From: Breznakia blatticola
GTDB lineage: Bacteria > Bacillota_I > Bacilli_A > Erysipelotrichales > Erysipelotrichaceae
Assembly: GCF_004365815.1 (NCBI RefSeq)
Contig: NZ_SODD01000044.1
Span: forward strand, 1 to 20,725
DNA length: 20,725 bases
Reading direction: 5' to 3'
This document shows, piece after piece, positions 99-20,597 of the stretch; positions within the stretch are counted from its first letter, which is position 1, and each line of letters starts with the position of its first letter. The notes beneath the pieces are model-generated. The model was not told the origin of the DNA, searched no databases, and saw only the letters and a list, made by a program, of their open reading frames with translations. Both the position numbers and the translations under genes were made by a program.

Positions 99-545
99 TT
101 ATACTTGAAAAAGAATACCTAATATTCTCACAACCACAAAAAACAATACAAATCCAAGCAGAAACGGTATTGTCATTTTACCAGGTCCTTTTCCATATAA
201 CATTTCAAGTTCACCCATGGTTTTCTTTGGATTGTTGGGGTTTACATACAGTGTGATTTGCGCTGGTGCACGACCTTGCATTATTTTGTTTGTCTTATAC
301 ATCTTACTTCCAGGATTTATATAGTATTTATAGGTTGCTTTATAGTAAACGCTATTTTTTTCTTCATAATAGCGTCTTTGTTTTAGTAAGTATCCCGTTA
401 CTTCTAAACCATCTTGTTTTGCTTGCTCGATGGTTTTATACGCTTTTGCTTTGCTTTTATTTTGTATTTTCATCATAAAAATGAAGTAAATGATTGTAAT
501 TACTAAAGCAATACATAAGATGATAACCGTTTTCGTTTGTTCCAT
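99..545 (-). CDS. small membrane protein with DUF3592-like architecture
   Basis: 148-aa ORF with an N-terminal TM (VIILCIALVITIIYFIFMM), a soluble middle ending in ITLYVNPNNPKK (resembles the DUF3592 V.YdP.nP motif) and a C-terminal TM (IPFLLGFVLFFVVVRILGILF). ATG at 543-545 is preceded by a GGGGA RBS. Family assignment is from memory of the motif only. Confidence 0.55.
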   Translation of the reverse strand: MEQTKTVIILCIALVITIIYFIFMMKIQNKSKAKAYKTIEQAKQDGLEVTGYLLKQRRYYEEKNSVYYKATYKYYINPGSKMYKTNKIMQGRAPAQITLYVNPNNPKKTMGELEMLYGKGPGKMTIPFLLGFVLFFVVVRILGILFQV

Positions 546-628
546 TTATCTGTCCCCTTTTTCAAAAGTATAGCATATGAATTTCGTATCATACTATGTT
601 TTCTTTTTACGACACATAGGGCTTTCAT

Positions 629-660
629 AAAAAAAGTATGACTTTTTGATCATACTTTTT
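629..660 (-). terminator. rho-independent terminator of the PadR-DUF1048 operon
   Basis: Arms 631..641 AAAAAGTATGA and 650..660 TCATACTTTTT with an 8-nt loop. On the minus strand the stem is followed by the U-run encoded by the A-run 629..635. It overlaps the TAA at 659-661. A/T runs on both sides make it potentially bidirectional. Confidence 0.65.
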
Positions 661-1027
661 AATCTTTAAATCGTTTTGTTAGTTTCTCTTTTTCTTTATT
701 GACCCAAGAGTGATCAATTTCTTTAGCTAAACTATCTGCAAATTCACCAACATCATCTCCAGTAATTTGTTTTACCGATAAACCTTGTGCAACACCATCT
801 TCAAACATCTCAAGAAGTCCTCCGATTACTTGTTGAGCATTATGTCCTGATGTATCTGCATGTGACCATAAATATTTTTCTACATGTTCATAAACATCTT
901 TATAATCTTTAGGTAATGCTTCAATTCTCGCTTTGTATTTACGATATTCTTCTTTATCTTTTTTTATGTTTTTTAAACTTACAAGACCTTCTTTTATATA
1001 GTTTTTAATACTCATTTTTTCATTCAT
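659..1027 (-). CDS. DUF1048-family protein (PadR-associated)
   Basis: 122 aa. YRKYKARIEALPKDYKDVYEHVEKYLW....LLEMFEDGVAQGLSVKQITGDDVGEFADSL matches my memory of DUF1048 proteins that follow PadR regulators in Firmicutes. The GGAGGA RBS (1035-1040) overlaps the end of the PadR gene, with a 3-nt gap to the PadR stop. Confidence 0.75.
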   Translation of the reverse strand: MNEKMSIKNYIKEGLVSLKNIKKDKEEYRKYKARIEALPKDYKDVYEHVEKYLWSHADTSGHNAQQVIGGLLEMFEDGVAQGLSVKQITGDDVGEFADSLAKEIDHSWVNKEKEKLTKRFKD

Positions 1028-1030
1028 TTC

Positions 1031-1363
1031 TTAGTCCTCCAAATGTGTTTTTTGTATATGTTGTATTTTTGTGGATAGTTCATTCCATGATCGCCAAAAA
1101 GCATCTAACTGCTGTTGTCCTTGTGTATTTAATGTATAAAACTTACGCATTGGACCAATCGATGATGGTTTTTTACTAATATCTACCCACCCATTTTTTT
1201 CTAAACGAATCAGTATTGTATACACCGTTCCTTCAACAACATCTTCAAATCCTTGTTCATTTAGTGTTTTGGTAATTTCATATCCATACGTTTCCTGTTT
1301 TTTTATAATATCCAACACCAATCCTTCAAGAACACCTTTTAGCATCTCTGTTTGTTTAATCAT
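1031..1363 (-). CDS. PadR-family transcriptional regulator
   Basis: 110 aa. LKGVLEGLVLDIIKKQETYGYEITKTL....EGTVYTILIRLEKNGWV....RKFYTLNTQG is the canonical PadR winged-HTH signature. RBS AGAGG at 1371-1375. Confidence 0.85.
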   Translation of the reverse strand: MIKQTEMLKGVLEGLVLDIIKKQETYGYEITKTLNEQGFEDVVEGTVYTILIRLEKNGWVDISKKPSSIGPMRKFYTLNTQGQQQLDAFWRSWNELSTKIQHIQKTHLED

Positions 1364-1463: not shown

Positions 1464-1503
1464 TACTATAATAACCCAATATATAAAATGGGTTATTATA
1501 GTA
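1464..1503. repeat. perfect 15-bp inverted repeat (hairpin), possible terminator or island boundary
   Basis: 1464..1478 TACTATAATAACCCA and 1489..1503 TGGGTTATTATAGTA are exact reverse complements separated by a 10-nt AT loop. It lies 40 nt downstream of the S8 stop (1543-1545). No U-run follows on either strand, so it is not a canonical intrinsic terminator. Confidence 0.5.
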
Positions 1504-1542: not shown

Positions 1543-3774
1543 CTATTCTAAAGTAATTTCTTCATTTGCTGTTTGATATATATCAATGCGATTTTCAACA
1601 TTGATGCGATTTACAAGCCATCCTTTAAAGTGACATTGTTGAATAAAATCATCAATTCTATTTACTCCATTTATCTCTTTTAAAGTAACTACAACACCAA
1701 ATCTAATACCCTCACCATCACTGTTACTCAAACGCTCTTTTGTTTTAATACTCATTCCCCACATTGGATTTTTATAGACTTTTTTACCTTTTGAACGTTC
1801 TTTGATAGGTTCACTAATATGCTTTACGTTATCCCATTTTCTAAATAATTTTCTCGCATCTTCTTCAAAAAGATAATGTTCCTTATCTTCAATACTCTGC
1901 TTGTTTTTGTTAATAGATTTTAGTATACCATTGTCATCAATTCTTCCAAAGTAAATATCCAACTCAGTATTAGTATAATCTACTCCTTGATTTCTAGAAC
2001 ATTTTGGGAAGTAACATAATGTAGCTTTTGCTACATATGGATGTTTATTTTGGTATATAGGAACTGGAAAACTGTACTTGTATGTATCATATTTTTCTGA
2101 CACACCCTCAACAACAAATTTAATTTCATCTTCTGTCGACTGTATAATATCCTCAATTCGTATAGGAACTACTCCATTTCCTTTAAGTGATAGTTCTTCA
2201 AAATCTTTATGATTTTCCCAACCAATAGCAGAGTCAATAATTAGAGCTTTAGCTATCTCCTTACTAAGTCCTATAACGTCTATAAGATAAGAAAGTTTTC
2301 TTGCAATCCATGGCGCAGCAAACGAAGTACCTGCTACTTTTGATTCTCCAAGAGGCTCACATACTGAAATATAATTATCCCTCGTTCCTCCATAATAACA
2401 AACATCTGGTTTAGTAAAAAAGGAAAGAACAATACCTCTTCTTGAATAATCTGCAGGTATATTATTTAAGTCCACAGAGTTAACTATTATTGAATTAATG
2501 GAGTCTGCTGGAGCACCAATTCTTCTGTTTTCATCTTTATCTCTATTATTTGTTCCAGCTATTACGAAAATCACATCGTTCTCAAATTGAATTTGATCCA
2601 AAACTGCTCCCTCTGCTGAGATAAAACTTTCTTTAATCTCATCATTAGAACCTAATGACAGATTCCATACTCTAATATCACGGTTTTCTGCCACAATTTC
2701 CTTAATAGTACGTATAATTGTAAATGAATTAAATGCTCTATTTGTTGCTACACCAAAATGACGTACTTTAAATCTTCCACAACCGTCATCTAGATGTGGA
2801 TTAATACTCGGTCCATCTACAATTAATGATGAAACTGCAGTACCATGTTTATAATCATCTGCATCTGTAGGAATATTTACATCTATTTTATTATGAAATT
2901 CTACCCATTCATGAAAATATACTCGTTCATCAAAAAGAGTATCTATAACTCCTATTGTGGGTTCATTCTTCGGTGATGGTATTAAGTTAGCATCGATTTC
3001 AAACGGTTCCGAGAAATCACTTGGAGAAAGTTCAGAAATATTTTCAACTGCCATTGCTACTAAATATGGTGCTTTTTGAAGAAGTGTATGTAAATACTGT
3101 TCATCCAATAAAACTGTTGTTTTATTTAAAATACGTTCGTTAAATATTGGAATTCCTAGTTTTTCTAATAACTCTTGTGTATTAGTTCCTGTATCATAAA
3201 GTGTCACAATAGAACTTTTATTTATTTCAAAATCAGCACGTTCTACATCAAACTTTTCGATATAAGAAGTATCTACGATTATTTTTTGAAATTTAGATTT
3301 TGAAGTATTATATGATTTACAATTAATACATTCAATGTTTTTTTTCTCATTAAAATAGATATCATTTATACTCCCATTAAACTCATTATTTAATATATTA
3401 ATCACATACTGTGCATTAATAATTGAATTTTCTATTGCCGAATAAGGAATAAAATGTGTAATTATATGTTTCTTTTTGTTGTCCGAAAATTTTGCTCCAA
3501 CAATTGTATCATTAGGAGATTTACTTCCATTACATAAAAAAAACTTACATCTGTTACTCTTAGCAATAATTGTATTGTAATAAACACTAATAAGACATCC
3601 GTTTAGTAGTTTCTCTATTTTCCAAAATCTCTTCATTTCTTCTAAATACAAAATTAAGCGTTCAATATCCTTTACACTTACTATACTATTTTTAGCCAAT
3701 TTTGGAGAACCTGGTTTACCAGGATTTTTTCTTTGATCAAAACTTCCTTTCAAGTTCAAAATATCATTTTTCAC
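1543..3774 (-). CDS. cytoplasmic S8 (subtilisin-like) serine peptidase with unassigned N- and C-terminal regions (IetS-like)
   Basis: 743 aa. Catalytic residues occur in subtilase order: D278 in IGVIDT (nt 2941-2943), H310 in KHGTAV (2845-2847), oxyanion Asn in IAGTNN (N409), S484 in AGTSFAAPW (2323-2325). No hydrophobic signal peptide (starts MKNDILNLKGSFDQRKNPGKPGSP). GTG start 3772-3774 has RBS AGGGAGG at 3781-3787, 1 nt after the upstream TGA. Confidence 0.9.
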   Translation of the reverse strand: MKNDILNLKGSFDQRKNPGKPGSPKLAKNSIVSVKDIERLILYLEEMKRFWKIEKLLNGCLISVYYNTIIAKSNRCKFFLCNGSKSPNDTIVGAKFSDNKKKHIITHFIPYSAIENSIINAQYVINILNNEFNGSINDIYFNEKKNIECINCKSYNTSKSKFQKIIVDTSYIEKFDVERADFEINKSSIVTLYDTGTNTQELLEKLGIPIFNERILNKTTVLLDEQYLHTLLQKAPYLVAMAVENISELSPSDFSEPFEIDANLIPSPKNEPTIGVIDTLFDERVYFHEWVEFHNKIDVNIPTDADDYKHGTAVSSLIVDGPSINPHLDDGCGRFKVRHFGVATNRAFNSFTIIRTIKEIVAENRDIRVWNLSLGSNDEIKESFISAEGAVLDQIQFENDVIFVIAGTNNRDKDENRRIGAPADSINSIIVNSVDLNNIPADYSRRGIVLSFFTKPDVCYYGGTRDNYISVCEPLGESKVAGTSFAAPWIARKLSYLIDVIGLSKEIAKALIIDSAIGWENHKDFEELSLKGNGVVPIRIEDIIQSTEDEIKFVVEGVSEKYDTYKYSFPVPIYQNKHPYVAKATLCYFPKCSRNQGVDYTNTELDIYFGRIDDNGILKSINKNKQSIEDKEHYLFEEDARKLFRKWDNVKHISEPIKERSKGKKVYKNPMWGMSIKTKERLSNSDGEGIRFGVVVTLKEINGVNRIDDFIQQCHFKGWLVNRINVENRIDIYQTANEEITLE

Positions 3775-3775
3775 T

Positions 3776-4819
3776 TCATACCTCCCTCAGTTCTCTTGCT
3801 ACCTGACTTTTTGAAATTCCCGTTAATAACTCGATTTCTCGAAGTGTAAACCCCAACTCTTTTAGTTCTAATAAAGATGGTTCTTTGTGTTCAAAATCTA
3901 TAAATTTCAGTAATCTTTTTAAATAGTCAAATTCATTACTTGGATCACTAAAAGCTAGAGATACCTTAATTATGTTTTTTAATTCTCCTGGATTCGGAAT
4001 ATTATCCATATTTTTCATTATTTTTCTAAAAAGTTTCATGTTTTTACCAGCATATTTAAATTTTTTTAGTAATCCATTAAGCATTATTTCAGATATATCA
4101 ATTAAATCTTCTTTCGAATATCTATTAAAATTGATAATTGAATCAAATCTTCTCACTAAGGCCTTATCAAAATTTTTAAACAAATTTGTTGTTGCAATTA
4201 ATACTACTTGATCATTTAATTGATCCAACTCTTTTAGAATAGTTGAAGTTACTCTTCCCATTTCTCTTAAGTCATTTGAATTCACTCTATCTAATGCAAT
4301 AACATCTATTTCATCAAATAAAATTAGTATTTTTGAAGGATGTGGTAATTTATTAATTTCACTAAAAACAGATACAATATTCTTAGCTGTTTGACCCATC
4401 TTGCTATCAATTAATTCGCTAAATTCAATCATATATAATTTTCTATTTAGCAATCGTGCAACTTGCTTCACCGTTTCTGTTTTCCCTGTACCTGGTAATC
4501 CTTCAAATAAAAATTTATTAATTCCCACATCATGATTAACTGCGTTAATTATTCCCTTTATATCGTCTGTAATTTCTTTAGGCAGAGGTAATGGCTCGCT
4601 ATTTACTTCAACTTCTTTAAAAAATGTATTTTCAAAATACTCTCCCTGTGGTACAAATGTATTTGCATTTGATAACAAACTCATAATGTACTCTGATAAT
4701 TGGTGATCACCATTTTTATCAAAATATCGAGCAATTTCAATTGCTTCATTTCTAAATTGCATGTCATTTTTTTCTGTATAATATTTAATTAAGTTAAGTA
4801 TATTTTTCTTTTTCATCAT
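3776..4819 (-). CDS. single-module classical AAA+ ATPase with C-terminal HTH-like tail (IetA-like)
   Basis: 347 aa. Walker A GLPGTGKT (aa 107-114, nt 4478-4501), Walker B ILILFDEID (aa 164-172), sensor-1 LIATTN, arginines in LVRRFD. The C-terminal aa 315-347 LLELKELGFTLREIELLTGISKSQVARELREV look like a helix-turn-helix. GGAGG RBS at 4826-4830, 6 nt before ATG 4817-4819. Confidence 0.9.
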   Translation of the reverse strand: MMKKKNILNLIKYYTEKNDMQFRNEAIEIARYFDKNGDHQLSEYIMSLLSNANTFVPQGEYFENTFFKEVEVNSEPLPLPKEITDDIKGIINAVNHDVGINKFLFEGLPGTGKTETVKQVARLLNRKLYMIEFSELIDSKMGQTAKNIVSVFSEINKLPHPSKILILFDEIDVIALDRVNSNDLREMGRVTSTILKELDQLNDQVVLIATTNLFKNFDKALVRRFDSIINFNRYSKEDLIDISEIMLNGLLKKFKYAGKNMKLFRKIMKNMDNIPNPGELKNIIKVSLAFSDPSNEFDYLKRLLKFIDFEHKEPSLLELKELGFTLREIELLTGISKSQVARELREV

Positions 4820-4839
4820 CTACTACCTCCTGTATATAT

Positions 4840-4881
4840 ATTTTAACACATTTTGGGACAAAAATACATTAAATGGGACAA
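4840..4881 (-). promoter_or_regulatory. candidate promoter and tandem direct repeats upstream of the ATPase-protease operon
   Basis: Minus strand has an extended -10 TGtTAAAAT (4840-4848) with no good -35. Plus-strand repeats are ACATTttGGGACAA (4848-4861) and ACATTaaaTGGGACAA (4866-4881). The TGGGACA cores at 4854-4860 and 4874-4880 are 20 bp apart and cover the spacer/-35 area. Several other AT-rich -10-like hexamers exist, so the TSS is unresolved. Confidence 0.3.
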
Positions 4882-7361: not shown

Positions 7362-8670
7362 CTAGTTAAAATTATACATACTCATATAATTGGTTTGTTT
7401 TTTCTCGACATGAGTCTTCGCCATCGATAGCATTACCAGATTTGCTAATTGAACTCTCACTCTAATTGTATCTAAGTTTCGCAAATAATGATGCTCAAAT
7501 CCATAATCACAATCCAACCTTGCATTATACCTTTCAACTGCGGTACGCCCTTTATAGAGTCTTTTAAACTTCTTTGATCCTCTTGCTACTTCGTTGAATA
7601 TACGCTCATCATCTTTTAGATATAATCGATATACTTTTCCATTATGCTCATATCTCATGGCTTTTCTTGTTTTGTCATAACCTAAGTATTTCATAGAATC
7701 CGCTTTACCTGTTTCAGGATTTGCGTAATAAATATCACCATTTTCATAGTAGTATATGTTCGTATCTTTGTATTGTGTTCCATCTTCATCTTTTCGCATT
7801 TTCCTTGCATCAACGATAGGTATAATCCCCAGTCCTCTTGCTTGATTGAATAATTCCTTCCCATCATATCCTTTGTCAAGCATTAGGTACTTTGGCTTGT
7901 GACTTAACCTTCATTACCGTACGTTCACTGATATTGGCTTTATCAATATGTACGTTAATTGGGAGTCCAGTTAATACATCCACAATTACGTGCGCTCTAA
8001 ACCCAAAGAAACTATGTTTTTTAATCTTTTCTTTTCCATTTTTATCTGTAATGAAATTTTCTTTAATGGATACCGATGCATCATTCTCGCTACGACGATC
8101 TCCATCTGCATGTTCATTTACTCGATTCGCATAACTCTGAATATATTTTCCATCTCCAGCTAACTTTTCTCCAAATCCATCCACATTCTCATAAAAATAC
8201 TCTACCAGATTCTTTTGAATAGAATCTAGTTCCTCTTGATAATTTTCCAACCTTTGGTAGAATCGCGTAAAGACTGCTTCTCCAGGAACTTTCTTTTTAA
8301 TCCCATCAATATAATCAATATCTCTTAACCCACATATCTTTCGCAAATCTCTATTTCGGTTTAATTCTCTTATAAATGAAGCAGTAGAATTATGTCCTAA
8401 TACAATCTTTGCGAGAGCTAGATTCAACATCACTTCATTTGGATAATCATTTCTTCCTTTTCCACGCTCACGATTCAGAGCAGTTACCAATGTAGAAACA
8501 TCTAGTCCCTTGAAACAATATTCTAAACGCAAAAAATCATCACTTACTTCAAGATCTAAACACTCGAAGATATCCATTTGAGTGTGTTGCATTCGGAATT
8601 TCTTCAAAAGTGATTTTTCTTCATGAATTAATAATGATTTTGGTTGTTCTTGTGGTACAATTGTTTGCAT
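7362..8670 (-). mobile_element. IS5/IS1182-type DDE transposase gene split by a frameshift; element termini not identified
   Basis: The N-terminal ORF (7876-8670) has a DUF772-like GKGRNDYPNEVMLNLALAKIVLGHNSTASFIRELNRNRDLRKICGL and FGFRAHVIVDVLTGLPINV. The C-terminal frame, open from 7910, reads RLSHKPKYLMLDKGYD ... YKGRTAVERYNARLK (DDE second D and a Y-2-R-3-E signature). The frames differ by +1, and removing one base in AAGGTT (7905-7910) would fuse them. I could not find terminal inverted repeats. Confidence 0.8.
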
Positions 8671-17904: not shown

Positions 17905-17914
17905 TATAAATAAA

Positions 17915-18136
17915 GAAAGCGATGATAAGGATAAGTAATTGGATCATTATTTATAGAGAGTTAGTGGTAGGTGTAAACTAATAATAATCCCAGTGAAATC
18001 AACCTTTGAGTGATTTAATGAAATGAGTAATTAAATCCGGTAGTACCGTTATAACTTTAAGGACTGTATAGTTGAAGAAGGGTGGCAACGCGCTGCATAG
18101 CGCCCCTTTAGGTAAGCCACTCTTCTTTTATTTTTG
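17915..18136 (+). promoter_or_regulatory. T-box leader (tRNA-Ser specific) controlling serS
   Basis: Stem I base with a GA/K-turn motif GCGATGATAAGG, and AGAGAG at 17955-17960. The specifier loop reads GAAA-TCA-A, placing a serine UCA codon at 17999-18001 directly before the closing CCTT helix. The T-box sequence AAGGGTGGCAACGCG is at 18078-18092. Terminator arms AAGAAGGGTGGC (18075-18086) and GCCACTCTTCTT (18116-18127) are followed by a T-run. Confidence 0.85.
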
Positions 18137-18150
18137 TAAGGAGATAAACA

Positions 18151-19437
18151 ATGATTGATATTAAGTTTTTAAGAGAAAATCCAGAAGTAGTAAAAGAGAA
18201 TATTAAAAAGAAGTTTCAAGATAGTAAATTACCATTAGTAGATGAAGTTATTGCACTTGATAAAGAAAGTCGTGAGACACAAACAAGAGCTGATGAATTA
18301 CGTGCAAATCGTAATAAACTAAGTAAAGAAATTGGTTTATTAATGAAAGATGGTAAACGTGATGAAGCTGAGCAAGTAAAAAAAGATGTTCAAGCAATGG
18401 CTGATGAACTTGCTACTCTTGAAGCACGTGAAGAAGAAGTACAAAAGAAAGTACTTGATATTATGATGGTAATTCCAAATATCATCGATGATAGTGTACC
18501 TATTGGTAAAGATGATAGTGAAAATGTTGAAGTTGAACGTTATGGTGAGCCAGTAGTACCTGCTTTTGAAATTCCATATCACACAGATATTATGGAACGT
18601 TTTGATGGAATTGATTTAGATTCAGCACGTAAAGTAGCAGGAAATGGATTCTACTATTTAGAAGGTGATATGGCACGTTTACATTCAGCTGCAATCACAT
18701 ATGCACGTGACTTTATGATTGATAAAGGATTTACGTACTGTATTCCACCATTTATGATTCGCAGTAATGTAGTTACTGGAGTTATGAGTTTTGCGGAAAT
18801 GGAATCAATGATGTATAAAATTGAAGGTGAGGATCTTTACCTTATTGGAACAAGTGAACATAGTATGATTGGTAAATTCATTGATACAATTATTGATGAA
18901 GAAACATTACCTAAAACATATACAAGTTACTCACCATGTTTTAGAAAAGAAAAAGGTGCTCATGGTATTGAAGAACGTGGTGTGTACCGTATTCACCAAT
19001 TTGAAAAACAAGAAATGATTGTTGTATGTGAACCAGAAGAGAGTCCTATTTGGTTTGATAAAATGTACAAGTATACAATTGAATTATTTAGAAACTTAGA
19101 TGTTCCAGTACGTGCACTTGAATGTTGTTCAGGAGATTTAGCAGACTTAAAAACAAAAAGTATTGATGTTGAAGCATGGTCTCCACGCCAACAAAAATAC
19201 TTTGAAGTAGGTAGTTGTTCAAACTTATCAGATGCACAAGCTCGTCGTTTAAAAATCCGTGTAAATGGTAAAAATGGGAAGTACTATGCACATACACTAA
19301 ACAATACTGTAGTTGCTCCACCTCGTATGTTAATTGCATTGTTAGAAAATAACCTAAATGAAGATGGCTCAATCAATGTACCAGCTGCATTACAACCATA
19401 CATGGGTGGTAAAAAACGTTTAGTACCTGTGAAATAG
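18151..19437 (+). CDS. serS: seryl-tRNA synthetase
   Basis: 428 aa with an N-terminal coiled-coil arm (MIDIKFLRENPE...) and class II core motifs (FRKEKGAHG..RGVYRIHQFEK, GSCSN..DAQARRL, TLNNTVVAPPR). Confidence 0.95.
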   Translation: MIDIKFLRENPEVVKENIKKKFQDSKLPLVDEVIALDKESRETQTRADELRANRNKLSKEIGLLMKDGKRDEAEQVKKDVQAMADELATLEAREEEVQKKVLDIMMVIPNIIDDSVPIGKDDSENVEVERYGEPVVPAFEIPYHTDIMERFDGIDLDSARKVAGNGFYYLEGDMARLHSAAITYARDFMIDKGFTYCIPPFMIRSNVVTGVMSFAEMESMMYKIEGEDLYLIGTSEHSMIGKFIDTIIDEETLPKTYTSYSPCFRKEKGAHGIEERGVYRIHQFEKQEMIVVCEPEESPIWFDKMYKYTIELFRNLDVPVRALECCSGDLADLKTKSIDVEAWSPRQQKYFEVGSCSNLSDAQARRLKIRVNGKNGKYYAHTLNNTVVAPPRMLIALLENNLNEDGSINVPAALQPYMGGKKRLVPVK

Positions 19438-20033: not shown

Positions 20034-20040
20034 TAGTCTT

Positions 20041-20123
20041 GCTACTGCAACAATATCTAACTAACTTGGTCAGGTCGGGAACGAAGCAGCCATATGGAAG
20101 CTCTATTGTGTGTGGTAGCTTTT
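20041..20123 (+). ncRNA. ffs: small (4.5S-type) signal recognition particle RNA
   Basis: 20068-20092 GGTCAGGTCGGGAACGAAGCAGCCA matches the conserved SRP domain IV (E. coli GGUCAGGUCCGGAAGGAAGCAGCCA), including the GGAA tetraloop. 5' GCTAC (20041-45) pairs with 3' GTAGC (20115-19), closing one long hairpin, followed by TTTTATT. The ends are approximate. Confidence 0.75.
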
Positions 20124-20144
20124 ATTATATTTTGGAGATATCGT

Positions 20145-20597
20145 ATGGATCAAATATATATGAAGGAAGCTATTGTTGAAGCAAAAAAAGCATACGCAAT
20201 GGATGAAGTACCAATTGGTGCTGTAATTGTAAAATATAATACTATTATTGCTCGTGCACATAACTTACGTGAACATGAACAACTAGCAACTGCTCATGCA
20301 GAAATACTAGCAATTAATGAAGCATGCAAGCAACTACAAAGTTGGCGACTTGAAGGATGTACACTCTATGTTACATTAGAACCATGTCCAATGTGTTCAG
20401 GTGCAAGTATATTATCTCGCGTGGATCGTGTTGTATTTGGTGCAAGTGATCAAAAGGGTGGATCTATCGTAAGTAGTTTTTCAATGTTTGACCAACAAGG
20501 ATACAATCATTATCCAACGTATACTTCAGGAGTACTTGCAGATGAATGTGCAAGTTTACTAAAAGATTATTTTAAAGAGAAGCGAAATAAGAAGTAA
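20145..20597 (+). CDS. tadA: tRNA adenosine(34) deaminase TadA
   Basis: CDA zinc motifs HAEILA and PCPMCSGA. ATG 20145 has a GGAGA RBS (20134-20138). The track start at 20094 would run through the SRP RNA and is rejected. Confidence 0.9.
   Translation: MDQIYMKEAIVEAKKAYAMDEVPIGAVIVKYNTIIARAHNLREHEQLATAHAEILAINEACKQLQSWRLEGCTLYVTLEPCPMCSGASILSRVDRVVFGASDQKGGSIVSSFSMFDQQGYNHYPTYTSGVLADECASLLKDYFKEKRNKK

Follow-up and report, generated by a model that had tools for sequence, protein, structure and literature searches.

The ietAS locus of Breznakia blatticola

The window that we analyzed (20,725 nt) is a 20.7-kb contig from Breznakia blatticola, a member of the Erysipelotrichaceae. [quoted passage not shown] A preliminary description of the window had proposed that they form a candidate defence system similar to IetAS, and we refer to them as ietA and ietS. 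The two genes and the elements that start and bound them are:

3776..4819, minus strand: ietA, AAA+ ATPase (putative antitoxin/regulator); open reading frame (ORF) of 347 amino acids from the first ATG, with matches to PADLOC IetA and Pfam AAA
1543..3774, minus strand: ietS, cytoplasmic S8 subtilase (putative toxin/effector); ORF of 743 amino acids with a GTG start, 100% identical to database protein P0001 from Breznakia blatticola
4826..4830, minus strand: ribosome-binding site of ietA (GGAGG), ahead of the ATG, read from the sequence
3781..3787, minus strand: ribosome-binding site of ietS (AGGGAGG), within the last codons of ietA, read from the sequence
5005-4986: terminator of jag, which bounds the pair upstream (terminator scan)
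1464..1503, minus strand: A+T-rich hairpin 3' of ietS, a probable terminator and operon boundary

The sequence has a single base (3775) between the stop codon of ietA (TGA, 3776-3778) and the start codon of ietS (GTG, 3772-3774). The gene coordinates, this 1-nt gap, and the AGGGAGG motif inside the 3' end of ietA were all reproduced as first described. The database form of IetA (P0121, 100% identical) has 346 amino acids and begins at the second ATG (4816). We favor this start because the N-terminus of the homologs is MKKKN.

The pair was also said to be bracketed by the jag terminator and a 15-bp hairpin. The jag terminator was recovered, and the downstream hairpin is real but larger than that: its 20-nt arms (1464-1483 and 1484-1503) are 90% complementary. 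A terminator scan based on G+C did not call the hairpin at 1464-1503. Similarly, a scan for the sigma-70 consensus gave fewer promoter-like sites than in shuffled sequences and did not pick the ietA promoter. The G+C fraction is slightly lower over ietA (0.26-0.28 versus 0.30-0.33), and because this dip is only slight, composition does not delimit an island. The ietAS region is a self-contained module, in which a single promoter and a single terminator serve two genes that are coupled in translation.

The contig represents the neighborhood of the replication origin. One side of it has rnpA, yidC, and jag, and the other has dnaA, dnaN, recF, gyrB, and gyrA. The pair does sit among housekeeping genes, as had been noted, with jag, yidC, and rnpA beside it.

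The pair is a divergent member of the IetAS family

IetA matches the PADLOC model PDLC02196 (E = 7.5e-38) across residues 2-345 of 347, and it matches three more IetA models with E values from 1e-16 to 1e-28. IetS matches PDLC02197 (E = 2e-63) across residues 246-731, along with six more IetS models. The first 245 residues of IetS lie outside the match to every PADLOC IetS model. In Pfam, the hits are AAA for IetA (1.4e-26) and Peptidase_S8 for IetS (8.3e-30). The top matches in NCBIfam are the anti-phage ATPase IteA (NF042959) and the peptidase IteS (NF042956). When we used hhalign to compare our profiles with an annotated iteA/iteS pair from an Acidovorax plasmid, the match had a probability of 99.5% over residues 76-350 of IetA and of 99.3% over residues 270-703 of IetS. 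The IetA and IetS models being the best in PADLOC, and IteA and IteS being on top in NCBIfam, the proposed likeness to IetAS is borne out for both proteins.

The resemblance to annotated IetAS/IteAS pairs includes the tightly coupled order, with the ATPase before the S8 protease. In the ATPase, the AAA+ core and the C-terminal helix-turn-helix can be aligned; in the protease, this is true of the S8 domain and the beta domain at the C-terminus. However, the annotated proteins are not collinear with ours over the full length: the first ~75 amino acids of IetA and the first ~265 of IetS cannot be aligned, and the cores are only ~21-27% identical to proteobacterial and Agrobacterium-type proteins. 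As judged from these comparisons of sequence, the pair is a true member of the IetAS family, but it belongs to a divergent subfamily. The family is known to the standard defence-finder models; what is new here is this copy and its well-defined divergent clade.

We also considered the ATPase TRIP13/Cap6, which is associated with cyclic-oligonucleotide-based antiphage signaling systems (CBASS). Such an ATPase would be expected to have HORMA and a cyclase nearby. We rejected this assignment, as the TRIP13 model (3.2e-16) is far weaker than the IetA model and there is no conserved third gene.

Distribution and genome context

To examine the clade more broadly, we collected relatives from contigs of one genome per species. 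This gave at least 599 candidate stretches, of which 592 encode a relative; counts of loci refer to the best 80. Every one of the best 120 database clusters is full length, with 56-100% identity, and the best 80 loci have 53-72% identity. The hosts are Bacillota, Mollicutes, Neisseria, Pasteurellaceae (Pseudomonadota), Campylobacterota, Bacteroidota, Leptotrichiaceae (Fusobacteriota), and Saccharibacteria. Within the Mollicutes, members of the clade are found in Mycoplasma sp. P36-A1 (72% identity) and Mesomycoplasma hyorhinis (44%). For a defence gene that moves horizontally, it is unusually tight conservation that the proteins keep 53-72% identity across Streptococcus, Neisseria, Sulfurimonas, Lutibacter, and Saccharibacteria. 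With relatives of 53-79% identity in six phyla, the clade is unusually conserved, and we take it to be a very mobile module.

In all 78 loci that could be tested, ietA is directly upstream of ietS on the same strand (the other two of the 80 have under 150 bases upstream), so the two families co-occur across genomes. The junction between the genes lies between -14 and +10 nt in 76 loci, and in 40 of these 76 the genes overlap. This arrangement is not due to chance, in agreement with the earlier suggestion of coupled expression.

Clustering all of the flanking ORFs of the 80 loci did not reveal a third conserved gene. The next most common flanking family, large serine recombinases, adjoins in 14 of the 80 loci. 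Among the 141 nearest neighbors, there were 8 serine recombinases, 5 AbiH proteins, 3 TIR proteins, and 3 Fic proteins, as well as type I restriction enzymes, conjugation coupling proteins, and ArdA. Plasmids of Clostridium perfringens, Carnobacterium, and Macrococcoides carry copies of the window clade, and so do 16 viral contigs from IMG/VR. The plasmid and viral copies, with the recombinase and defence neighbors, are the trace that a mobile module for defence or addiction leaves.

A few loci are aberrant. On a Saccharibacteria chromosome (locus L034, 6964-8000), ietA appears to be disrupted: only residues 1-212 align (46% identity), and a gap of 408 nt precedes ietS, with the promoter boxes (see below) intact. 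In Enterobacter hormaechei (locus L088, 291-4916), an IS3-family element and a small ORF split the ATPase gene from the S8 gene, so this copy is probably inactivated. Four other distant IetAS-like pairs adjoin Shedu (L081), a caspase-family protein (L082), type III restriction-modification genes (L084), or TIR-domain genes (L087). These flanks are typical defence-island settings.

Catalytic sites and predicted domains

We divided both proteins into domains, mostly by using structure models:

4673..4816, minus strand: IetA, N-terminal three-helix bundle (residues 2-49), followed by a disordered linker; variable between clades and unaligned to canonical IteA (structure model)
3908..4618, minus strand: IetA, AAA+ module (residues 68-304) with Walker A K113, Walker B D169/E170, sensor-1 N212, and R223/R224 (structure model)
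3782..3874, minus strand: IetA, C-terminal three-helix helix-turn-helix (residues 316-346), with helices at 316-321, 326-333, and 337-346 and a pLDDT of 82-94
3220..3774, minus strand: IetS, N-terminal alpha/beta domain (residues 1-185), clade-specific, with no Pfam match and unaligned to canonical IteS (structure model)
3010..3219, minus strand: IetS, tentative propeptide-like subdomain (residues 186-255; I9-like, beta-alpha-beta-beta-alpha-beta), from the order of secondary structure in the model
2170..2967, minus strand: IetS, S8 catalytic domain (residues 270-535), from Pfam, motifs, and the alignment of homologs
1570..2142, minus strand: IetS, C-terminal beta-rich domain (residues 545-735), similar to a P-domain or beta-jelly-roll and common to canonical IteS (structure model; hhalign to residue 703)

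Both catalytic sites are intact. IetA contains GLPGTGKT starting at residue 107 (with K113), ILILFDEID at 164, ATTN at 209, and RRFD at 223, and the Walker and arginine residues are invariant across 50 homologs. In IetS, D278, H310, N409, and S484 are found in the expected contexts, and all four are invariant across 55 homologs. When we recomputed the positions of these motifs, they agreed with the preliminary description.

The structure model of IetA (pLDDT of 84) comprises the N-terminal bundle, the disordered linker, the AAA+ module, and the C-terminal helix-turn-helix. The AAA+ module is of the classic clade, and its nearest folds by Foldseek are p97, proteasomal Rpt/PAN, FtsH, Vps4, and spastin. 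The usual aromatic residue is missing from pore loop 1 (K140-M-G): in the HMMER alignment to Afg2/Drg1, the pore-loop tyrosine of K-Y-[LV]-G is opposite Lys140 of IetA (S-K-[ML]-G). The recognition helix of the predicted helix-turn-helix is SKSQVARELR. Pfam's HTH_38 matches 19 of 50 orthologs of IetA (best E = 6.4e-08), and the matches of the window's IetA to helix-turn-helix models are below threshold (HTH_3, E = 0.022).

Neither protein has a 19-residue segment with a Kyte-Doolittle average above 1.25, so we conclude that IetA and IetS have no signal peptide or membrane segment. For IetS, the maximum is 1.0 within the first 70 residues and 1.24 overall. The lack of a hydrophobic leader fits the earlier view that IetS is an intracellular protease. 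The preliminary description had also ruled out any propeptide-like hydrophobic N-terminus. This is correct with regard to hydrophobicity, but the structure model suggests an internal propeptide-like fold ahead of the S8 domain.

The model of IetS (pLDDT of 83, pTM of 0.85) has four parts. The first of these, the N-terminal domain, is a candidate sensor or IetA-docking domain. A profile of this domain was compared with 1.84 billion representatives and matched 531 representative clusters. Among full-length matches, the domain is found only at the N-terminus of proteins of the size of IetS (~730-796 amino acids). We saw no shuffling of the domain among the 150 best profile matches, which were IetS-length proteins or fragments.

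The model also suggests, tentatively, that IetS carries a propeptide-like segment ahead of its catalytic domain. The best Foldseek matches in the PDB are subtilases in which the propeptide is retained and a beta domain forms the C-terminus. The leading match is ProN-Tk-SP, with 573-585 aligned columns, followed by KP-43, SubHal, Kex2, furin, and PCSK9. For pro-subtilisin E in its unprocessed form, the alignment spans 402-408 columns, as compared to ~285-296 for mature subtilisins. In the model, the propeptide-like unit ends in a low-confidence linker just before the S8 domain. No Pfam model came over the threshold in scans of the four non-catalytic segments, and 19 homologs of the N-domain had no match to Inhibitor_I9 even at E ≤ 10. 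Also, hhalign found no similarity between the N-domain profile and the pro-sequence of subtilisin BPN', entered as an approximate query.

The predicted order of propeptide-like segment, S8 domain, and beta-sandwich is shared with Tk-SP, KP-43, SubHal, Kex2, furin, and PCSK9. In contrast to IetS, these pro-subtilases and convertases are secreted or lumenal and have signal peptides, and IetS has a 185-residue N-domain and a partner ATPase in addition. Compared with the secreted I9 subtilases, IetS has neither the hydrophobic leader nor Pfam's Inhibitor_I9, and the resemblance is at the level of the fold. Searches of the PDB by sequence and by fold did not identify a solved structure of IetA or IetS, and a literature search did not turn up a paper on the structure or the substrate of IetAS.

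A conserved pair of boxes at the ietA promoter

Upstream of ietA, the window contains two exact direct copies of TTGTCCCA, 20 nt apart:

4874..4881, minus strand: box 1, TTGTCCCA, the upstream copy, which is just ahead of the -35 position and is a putative operator for IetA (exact repeat)
4854..4861, minus strand: box 2, TTGTCCCA, the promoter-proximal copy, in the spacer between -35 and -10 (exact repeat)
4840..4848, minus strand: putative extended -10 element of the ietAS promoter, TGtTAAAAT, from the sequence and from its position in related loci

Of 73 related upstream regions, 72 have a box pair with a GTCCC core, at a spacing of 20 nt (49 regions) or 21 nt (23 regions). The DNA that flanks the boxes in these loci is otherwise unrelated. 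Even with looser spacing, only 2% of random 300-nt windows contain such a pair. The exact pattern TGTCCC-N12-15-TGTCCC occurs in 61 of the 80 loci, once each, on the strand of the genes and just before ietA, and nowhere else in ~1.1 Mb. In 67 of 72 loci, box 2 is followed within 2-12 nt by a -10 hexamer that differs from TATAAT at one position at most, and the commonest distance is 8-10 nt after the core. It follows that box 2 fills the spacer between -35 and -10 and that box 1 is just upstream of -35. In an independent set of loci from viral contigs, the pair with a spacing of 20-21 nt was found again in 12 of 14. A scan of viral contigs for the box pattern gave 120 matches, none of them beside ietA or ietS; with 14 specified bases, we consider these to be chance matches.

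The conserved box pair at the ietA promoter suggests autorepression by IetA; no other DNA-binding candidate accompanies the boxes from phylum to phylum. The window clade and other groups have these combinations of recognition helix and promoter repeat:

Window clade: helix GISKSQV; TTGTCCCA twice, direct, 20-21 nt apart
Macrococcoides caseolyticum (locus L083, 1340-1375): helix GISISTL; TTTTTCATTA twice, 20 nt apart
Enterococcus faecium plasmid (locus L087, about 1570-1600): GAACAAAT twice, 21 nt apart, just before the -10 element
Three proteobacterial loci (L081, L082, and L088): GVS-type helix; palindromes upstream of the ATPase gene
Enterococcus durans (distant): helix GISKSSV, which resembles that of the window; only one box, ATGTCCC, in the same position ahead of the -10 element
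Bacillus cereus m1293: none of these boxes in the 215-nt upstream region (compared over 500 nt)

The M. canis locus (L086) shares the GISISTL helix with L083, with a different layout of repeats. As far as can be read from these promoters and proteins, other IetA subclades keep the C-terminal helix-turn-helix but differ in the recognition helix and in the promoter repeat. In this small sample, the covariation of helix and operator supports IetA as the putative binder of the boxes. The direct boxes of the window also differ from the palindromes in the three proteobacterial loci. Our literature searches did not find a published description of an operator or a prodomain in IetAS.

Comparison to characterized systems

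Gao et al. 2020 reportedly identified IetAS as an anti-phage system. IetAS was first described as a toxin-antitoxin and plasmid-stability system of the Agrobacterium plasmid pTiC58, with the protease as the toxin and the ATPase as the antitoxin. Phage resistance has been shown for versions of IetAS from E. coli and B. cereus. The B. cereus system acts by abortive infection, and it becomes toxic when YosG from phage SPbeta is expressed. In the ietHAS system (Liu-DS4), the protease is likewise toxic and is neutralized by the ATPase, a mutant of the ATPase could not be cloned, and defence requires the activity of the protease. The IetA/IetS core is common to ietHAS and our pair, but ietHAS has an added SNF2 helicase, whereas the 80 loci of the window clade have no helicase or third conserved gene.

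A working toxin-antitoxin system has also been described in Mycoplasma mycoides subsp. capri GM12, where proteins 0132/0133 are an AAA-ATPase antitoxin and a subtilisin-like toxin. Toxicity of the protease was seen in three hosts (E. coli, B. subtilis, and M. capricolum), and the ATPase neutralizes the protease. The GM12 pair has the same two-protein make-up as ours and comes from a Mollicutes/Bacillota lineage.

The preliminary description had stated that the trigger, the substrate, and the mechanism of IetAS are unknown. This needs to be amended for the roles of toxin and antitoxin and for the YosG trigger, which are published; it still holds for the substrate and the molecular mechanism. 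As of April 2026, the molecular mechanism was still described as unknown; at issue are the protease substrate, how the ATPase holds the protease, and how phage are sensed.

In function, the arrangement in the window is analogous to the autoregulated operons of type II toxin-antitoxin systems, and likewise to those AAA+ proteins that have a helix-turn-helix at the C-terminus, such as DnaA and NtrC-type activators. As in type II systems, an antitoxin-like partner with a DNA-binding domain is encoded behind repeated boxes that lie over its own promoter. Unlike in those systems, the antitoxin here would be an ATPase and not a small labile protein. As for DnaA and NtrC, homology to IetA is limited to the AAA+ fold, the ietAS promoter is of the sigma-70 type and not sigma-54, and the binding of IetA to the boxes is our inference.

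A proposed mechanism and its alternatives

We think it likely that this locus is an IetAS defence/toxin-antitoxin module, in which the ATPase restrains a latent protease and represses its own operon, and phage infection triggers abortive infection. From published relatives, we take the roles of toxin and antitoxin, the requirement that the protease be active, and abortive infection that a phage sets off. By analogy, IetS would be an intracellular protease of the subtilisin type, latent at first and toxic once it is free. IetA would keep it harmless in an ATP-dependent manner. IetA probably also binds, via its C-terminal helix-turn-helix, to the two TTGTCCCA boxes that bracket the -35 position, and would thereby repress its own operon, so a loss of free IetA would raise expression as well. 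During infection, a phage product might disable or divert IetA, or it might act on the clade-specific N-domains; either partner could be the one that senses the phage. IetS would then mature, probably by shedding its propeptide-like segment in a putative zymogen step. The freed protease would cleave cellular or phage proteins, and growth would stop before the phage is completed. By the same logic, the pair could serve as an addiction module for mobile elements.

The earlier proposal that a nucleotide-driven sensor or unfoldase gates the protease is supported as far as the gating is concerned; that IetA is an unfoldase is uncertain, given the lysine in place of the pore-loop aromatic.

We also offer a more specific hypothesis about IetA, which we hold only tentatively and rate as somewhat less probable than its opposite. 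In this hypothesis, IetA has a dual function: it restrains the protease in an ATP-dependent manner, and it represses ietAS through the two direct TTGTCCCA boxes, which are two helical turns apart. The result would be a feedback-controlled zymogen switch. Titration of IetA during infection would both release IetS, with loss of the propeptide-like segment, and derepress the operon. If this is true, then the covariation of recognition helix and operator would insulate the subclades of IetAS from each other.

Several observations weigh against the defence module with a restrained protease, or against parts of it. The scores of our proteins miss the NCBIfam equivalog cut-offs (102.8 versus 510 bits for IteA and 157.1 versus 900 bits for IteS), and because they are so far below them, ietAS here is a divergent subfamily and not an equivalog of IteAS. 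In our literature search, we did not find a phage test of any member of the window's clade. The B. cereus pair that was tested, as represented by strain m1293, differs from ours at the N-terminus of IetA, and the 215 nt upstream of it lack TTGTCCCA boxes (the comparison covers the promoter and the first 95 codons). The GM12 pair, which is likened to ours by its description, may or may not belong to the same clade, and no test of phage defence is reported for it. In the window, ietAS is not in a defence island: its neighbors are housekeeping genes (jag, yidC, and rnpA) along with a PadR operon. Because a lysine replaces the pore-loop aromatic, processive threading or unfolding by IetA is doubtful. 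The propeptide idea is tentative, with fold matches behind it, because we did not find support at the sequence level. And because IetS alone is toxic in relatives, any prodomain that it has would not suffice to hold the protease inactive. Finally, a host factor might bind the boxes in place of IetA; the box shares 6 of 9 bases with the DnaA-box consensus.

Another explanation is that ietAS is chiefly an addiction module, which stabilizes the DNA that carries it by post-segregational killing and has no meaningful anti-phage role in this host. IetAS was discovered as a toxin-antitoxin system for plasmid stability, and the window's own clade is found on plasmids. Large serine recombinases adjoin 14 of the 80 loci (and are 8 of the 141 nearest neighbors), an insertion sequence element lies 2.5 kb from the pair in the window, and in type II toxin-antitoxin systems, the antitoxin typically autoregulates the promoter. 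However, the pair is chromosomal here, beside jag and yidC, with no adjacent recombinase or replication gene; other members of the family protect against phages; and neighbors in other genomes include AbiH, TIR, and restriction-modification genes. Overall, we consider a purely addictive role to be unlikely, and the roles in addiction and defence are not mutually exclusive.

The remaining alternatives seem much less credible than addiction. IetA might be mainly a transcription factor whose antitoxin effect is simply the repression of ietS, with IetS being a regulated protease that has a specific cellular substrate. The conserved helix-turn-helix, the conserved promoter boxes, and the non-canonical pore loop of IetA would all fit this idea. 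But because the two genes are translationally coupled, repression cannot alter the ratio of IetA to IetS. The complete and invariant ATPase site, together with the reported lethality of ATPase mutants in a relative, points to a post-translational and ATP-dependent hold, and the patchy, horizontally transferred distribution is unlike that of a housekeeping regulator. We therefore give this idea little credence. We give even less to the idea that IetS is an ordinary exported or peptide-maturing subtilase, such as a lantibiotic or cyanobactin leader peptidase, with an accessory ATPase. The Foldseek matches do include EpiP, PatA/PagA, and pro-subtilisins, but IetS lacks a signal peptide or membrane segment, its best profile matches are to IetS, and no gene for a precursor peptide, a modification enzyme, or a transporter is conserved nearby in the 80 loci.

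The instance of ietAS in the window leaves the picture of the family unchanged, and the pairing of operator and helix-turn-helix and the prodomain-like fold are modest new leads into its mechanism. The conserved operator and its putative binding domain provide one handle. The probable prodomain is another, as its cleavage could report activation. A third is the clade-specific N-domains of both proteins, which are obvious candidates for partner binding or phage sensing.

Other features of the window

The next operon after ietS (99-1363, minus strand) encodes a PadR regulator, a DUF1048 protein, and a small membrane protein. The spacer ahead of PadR (1400-1470) is rich in imperfect inverted repeats. 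At the edge of the contig (19-94, plus strand) is a fragment of a group II intron RNA (RF00029; 41 bits, barely over the threshold), so the assembly may be broken at this point because of the intron.

Between rnpA and dnaA, adjoining the replication-origin region, a DDE transposase is present as two overlapping ORFs (DUF772 and DDE_Tnp_1; 7362-8670, minus strand). A T-box leader (Rfam RF00230, 131 bits; 17913-18110, plus strand) is directly upstream of the ORF for seryl-tRNA synthetase (18151-19437). The small RNA of the signal recognition particle (RF00169, 57 bits) is at 20038-20125 on the plus strand. It overlaps the first codons of a deaminase-like ORF (20094-20597), so the gene probably starts at a later ATG.

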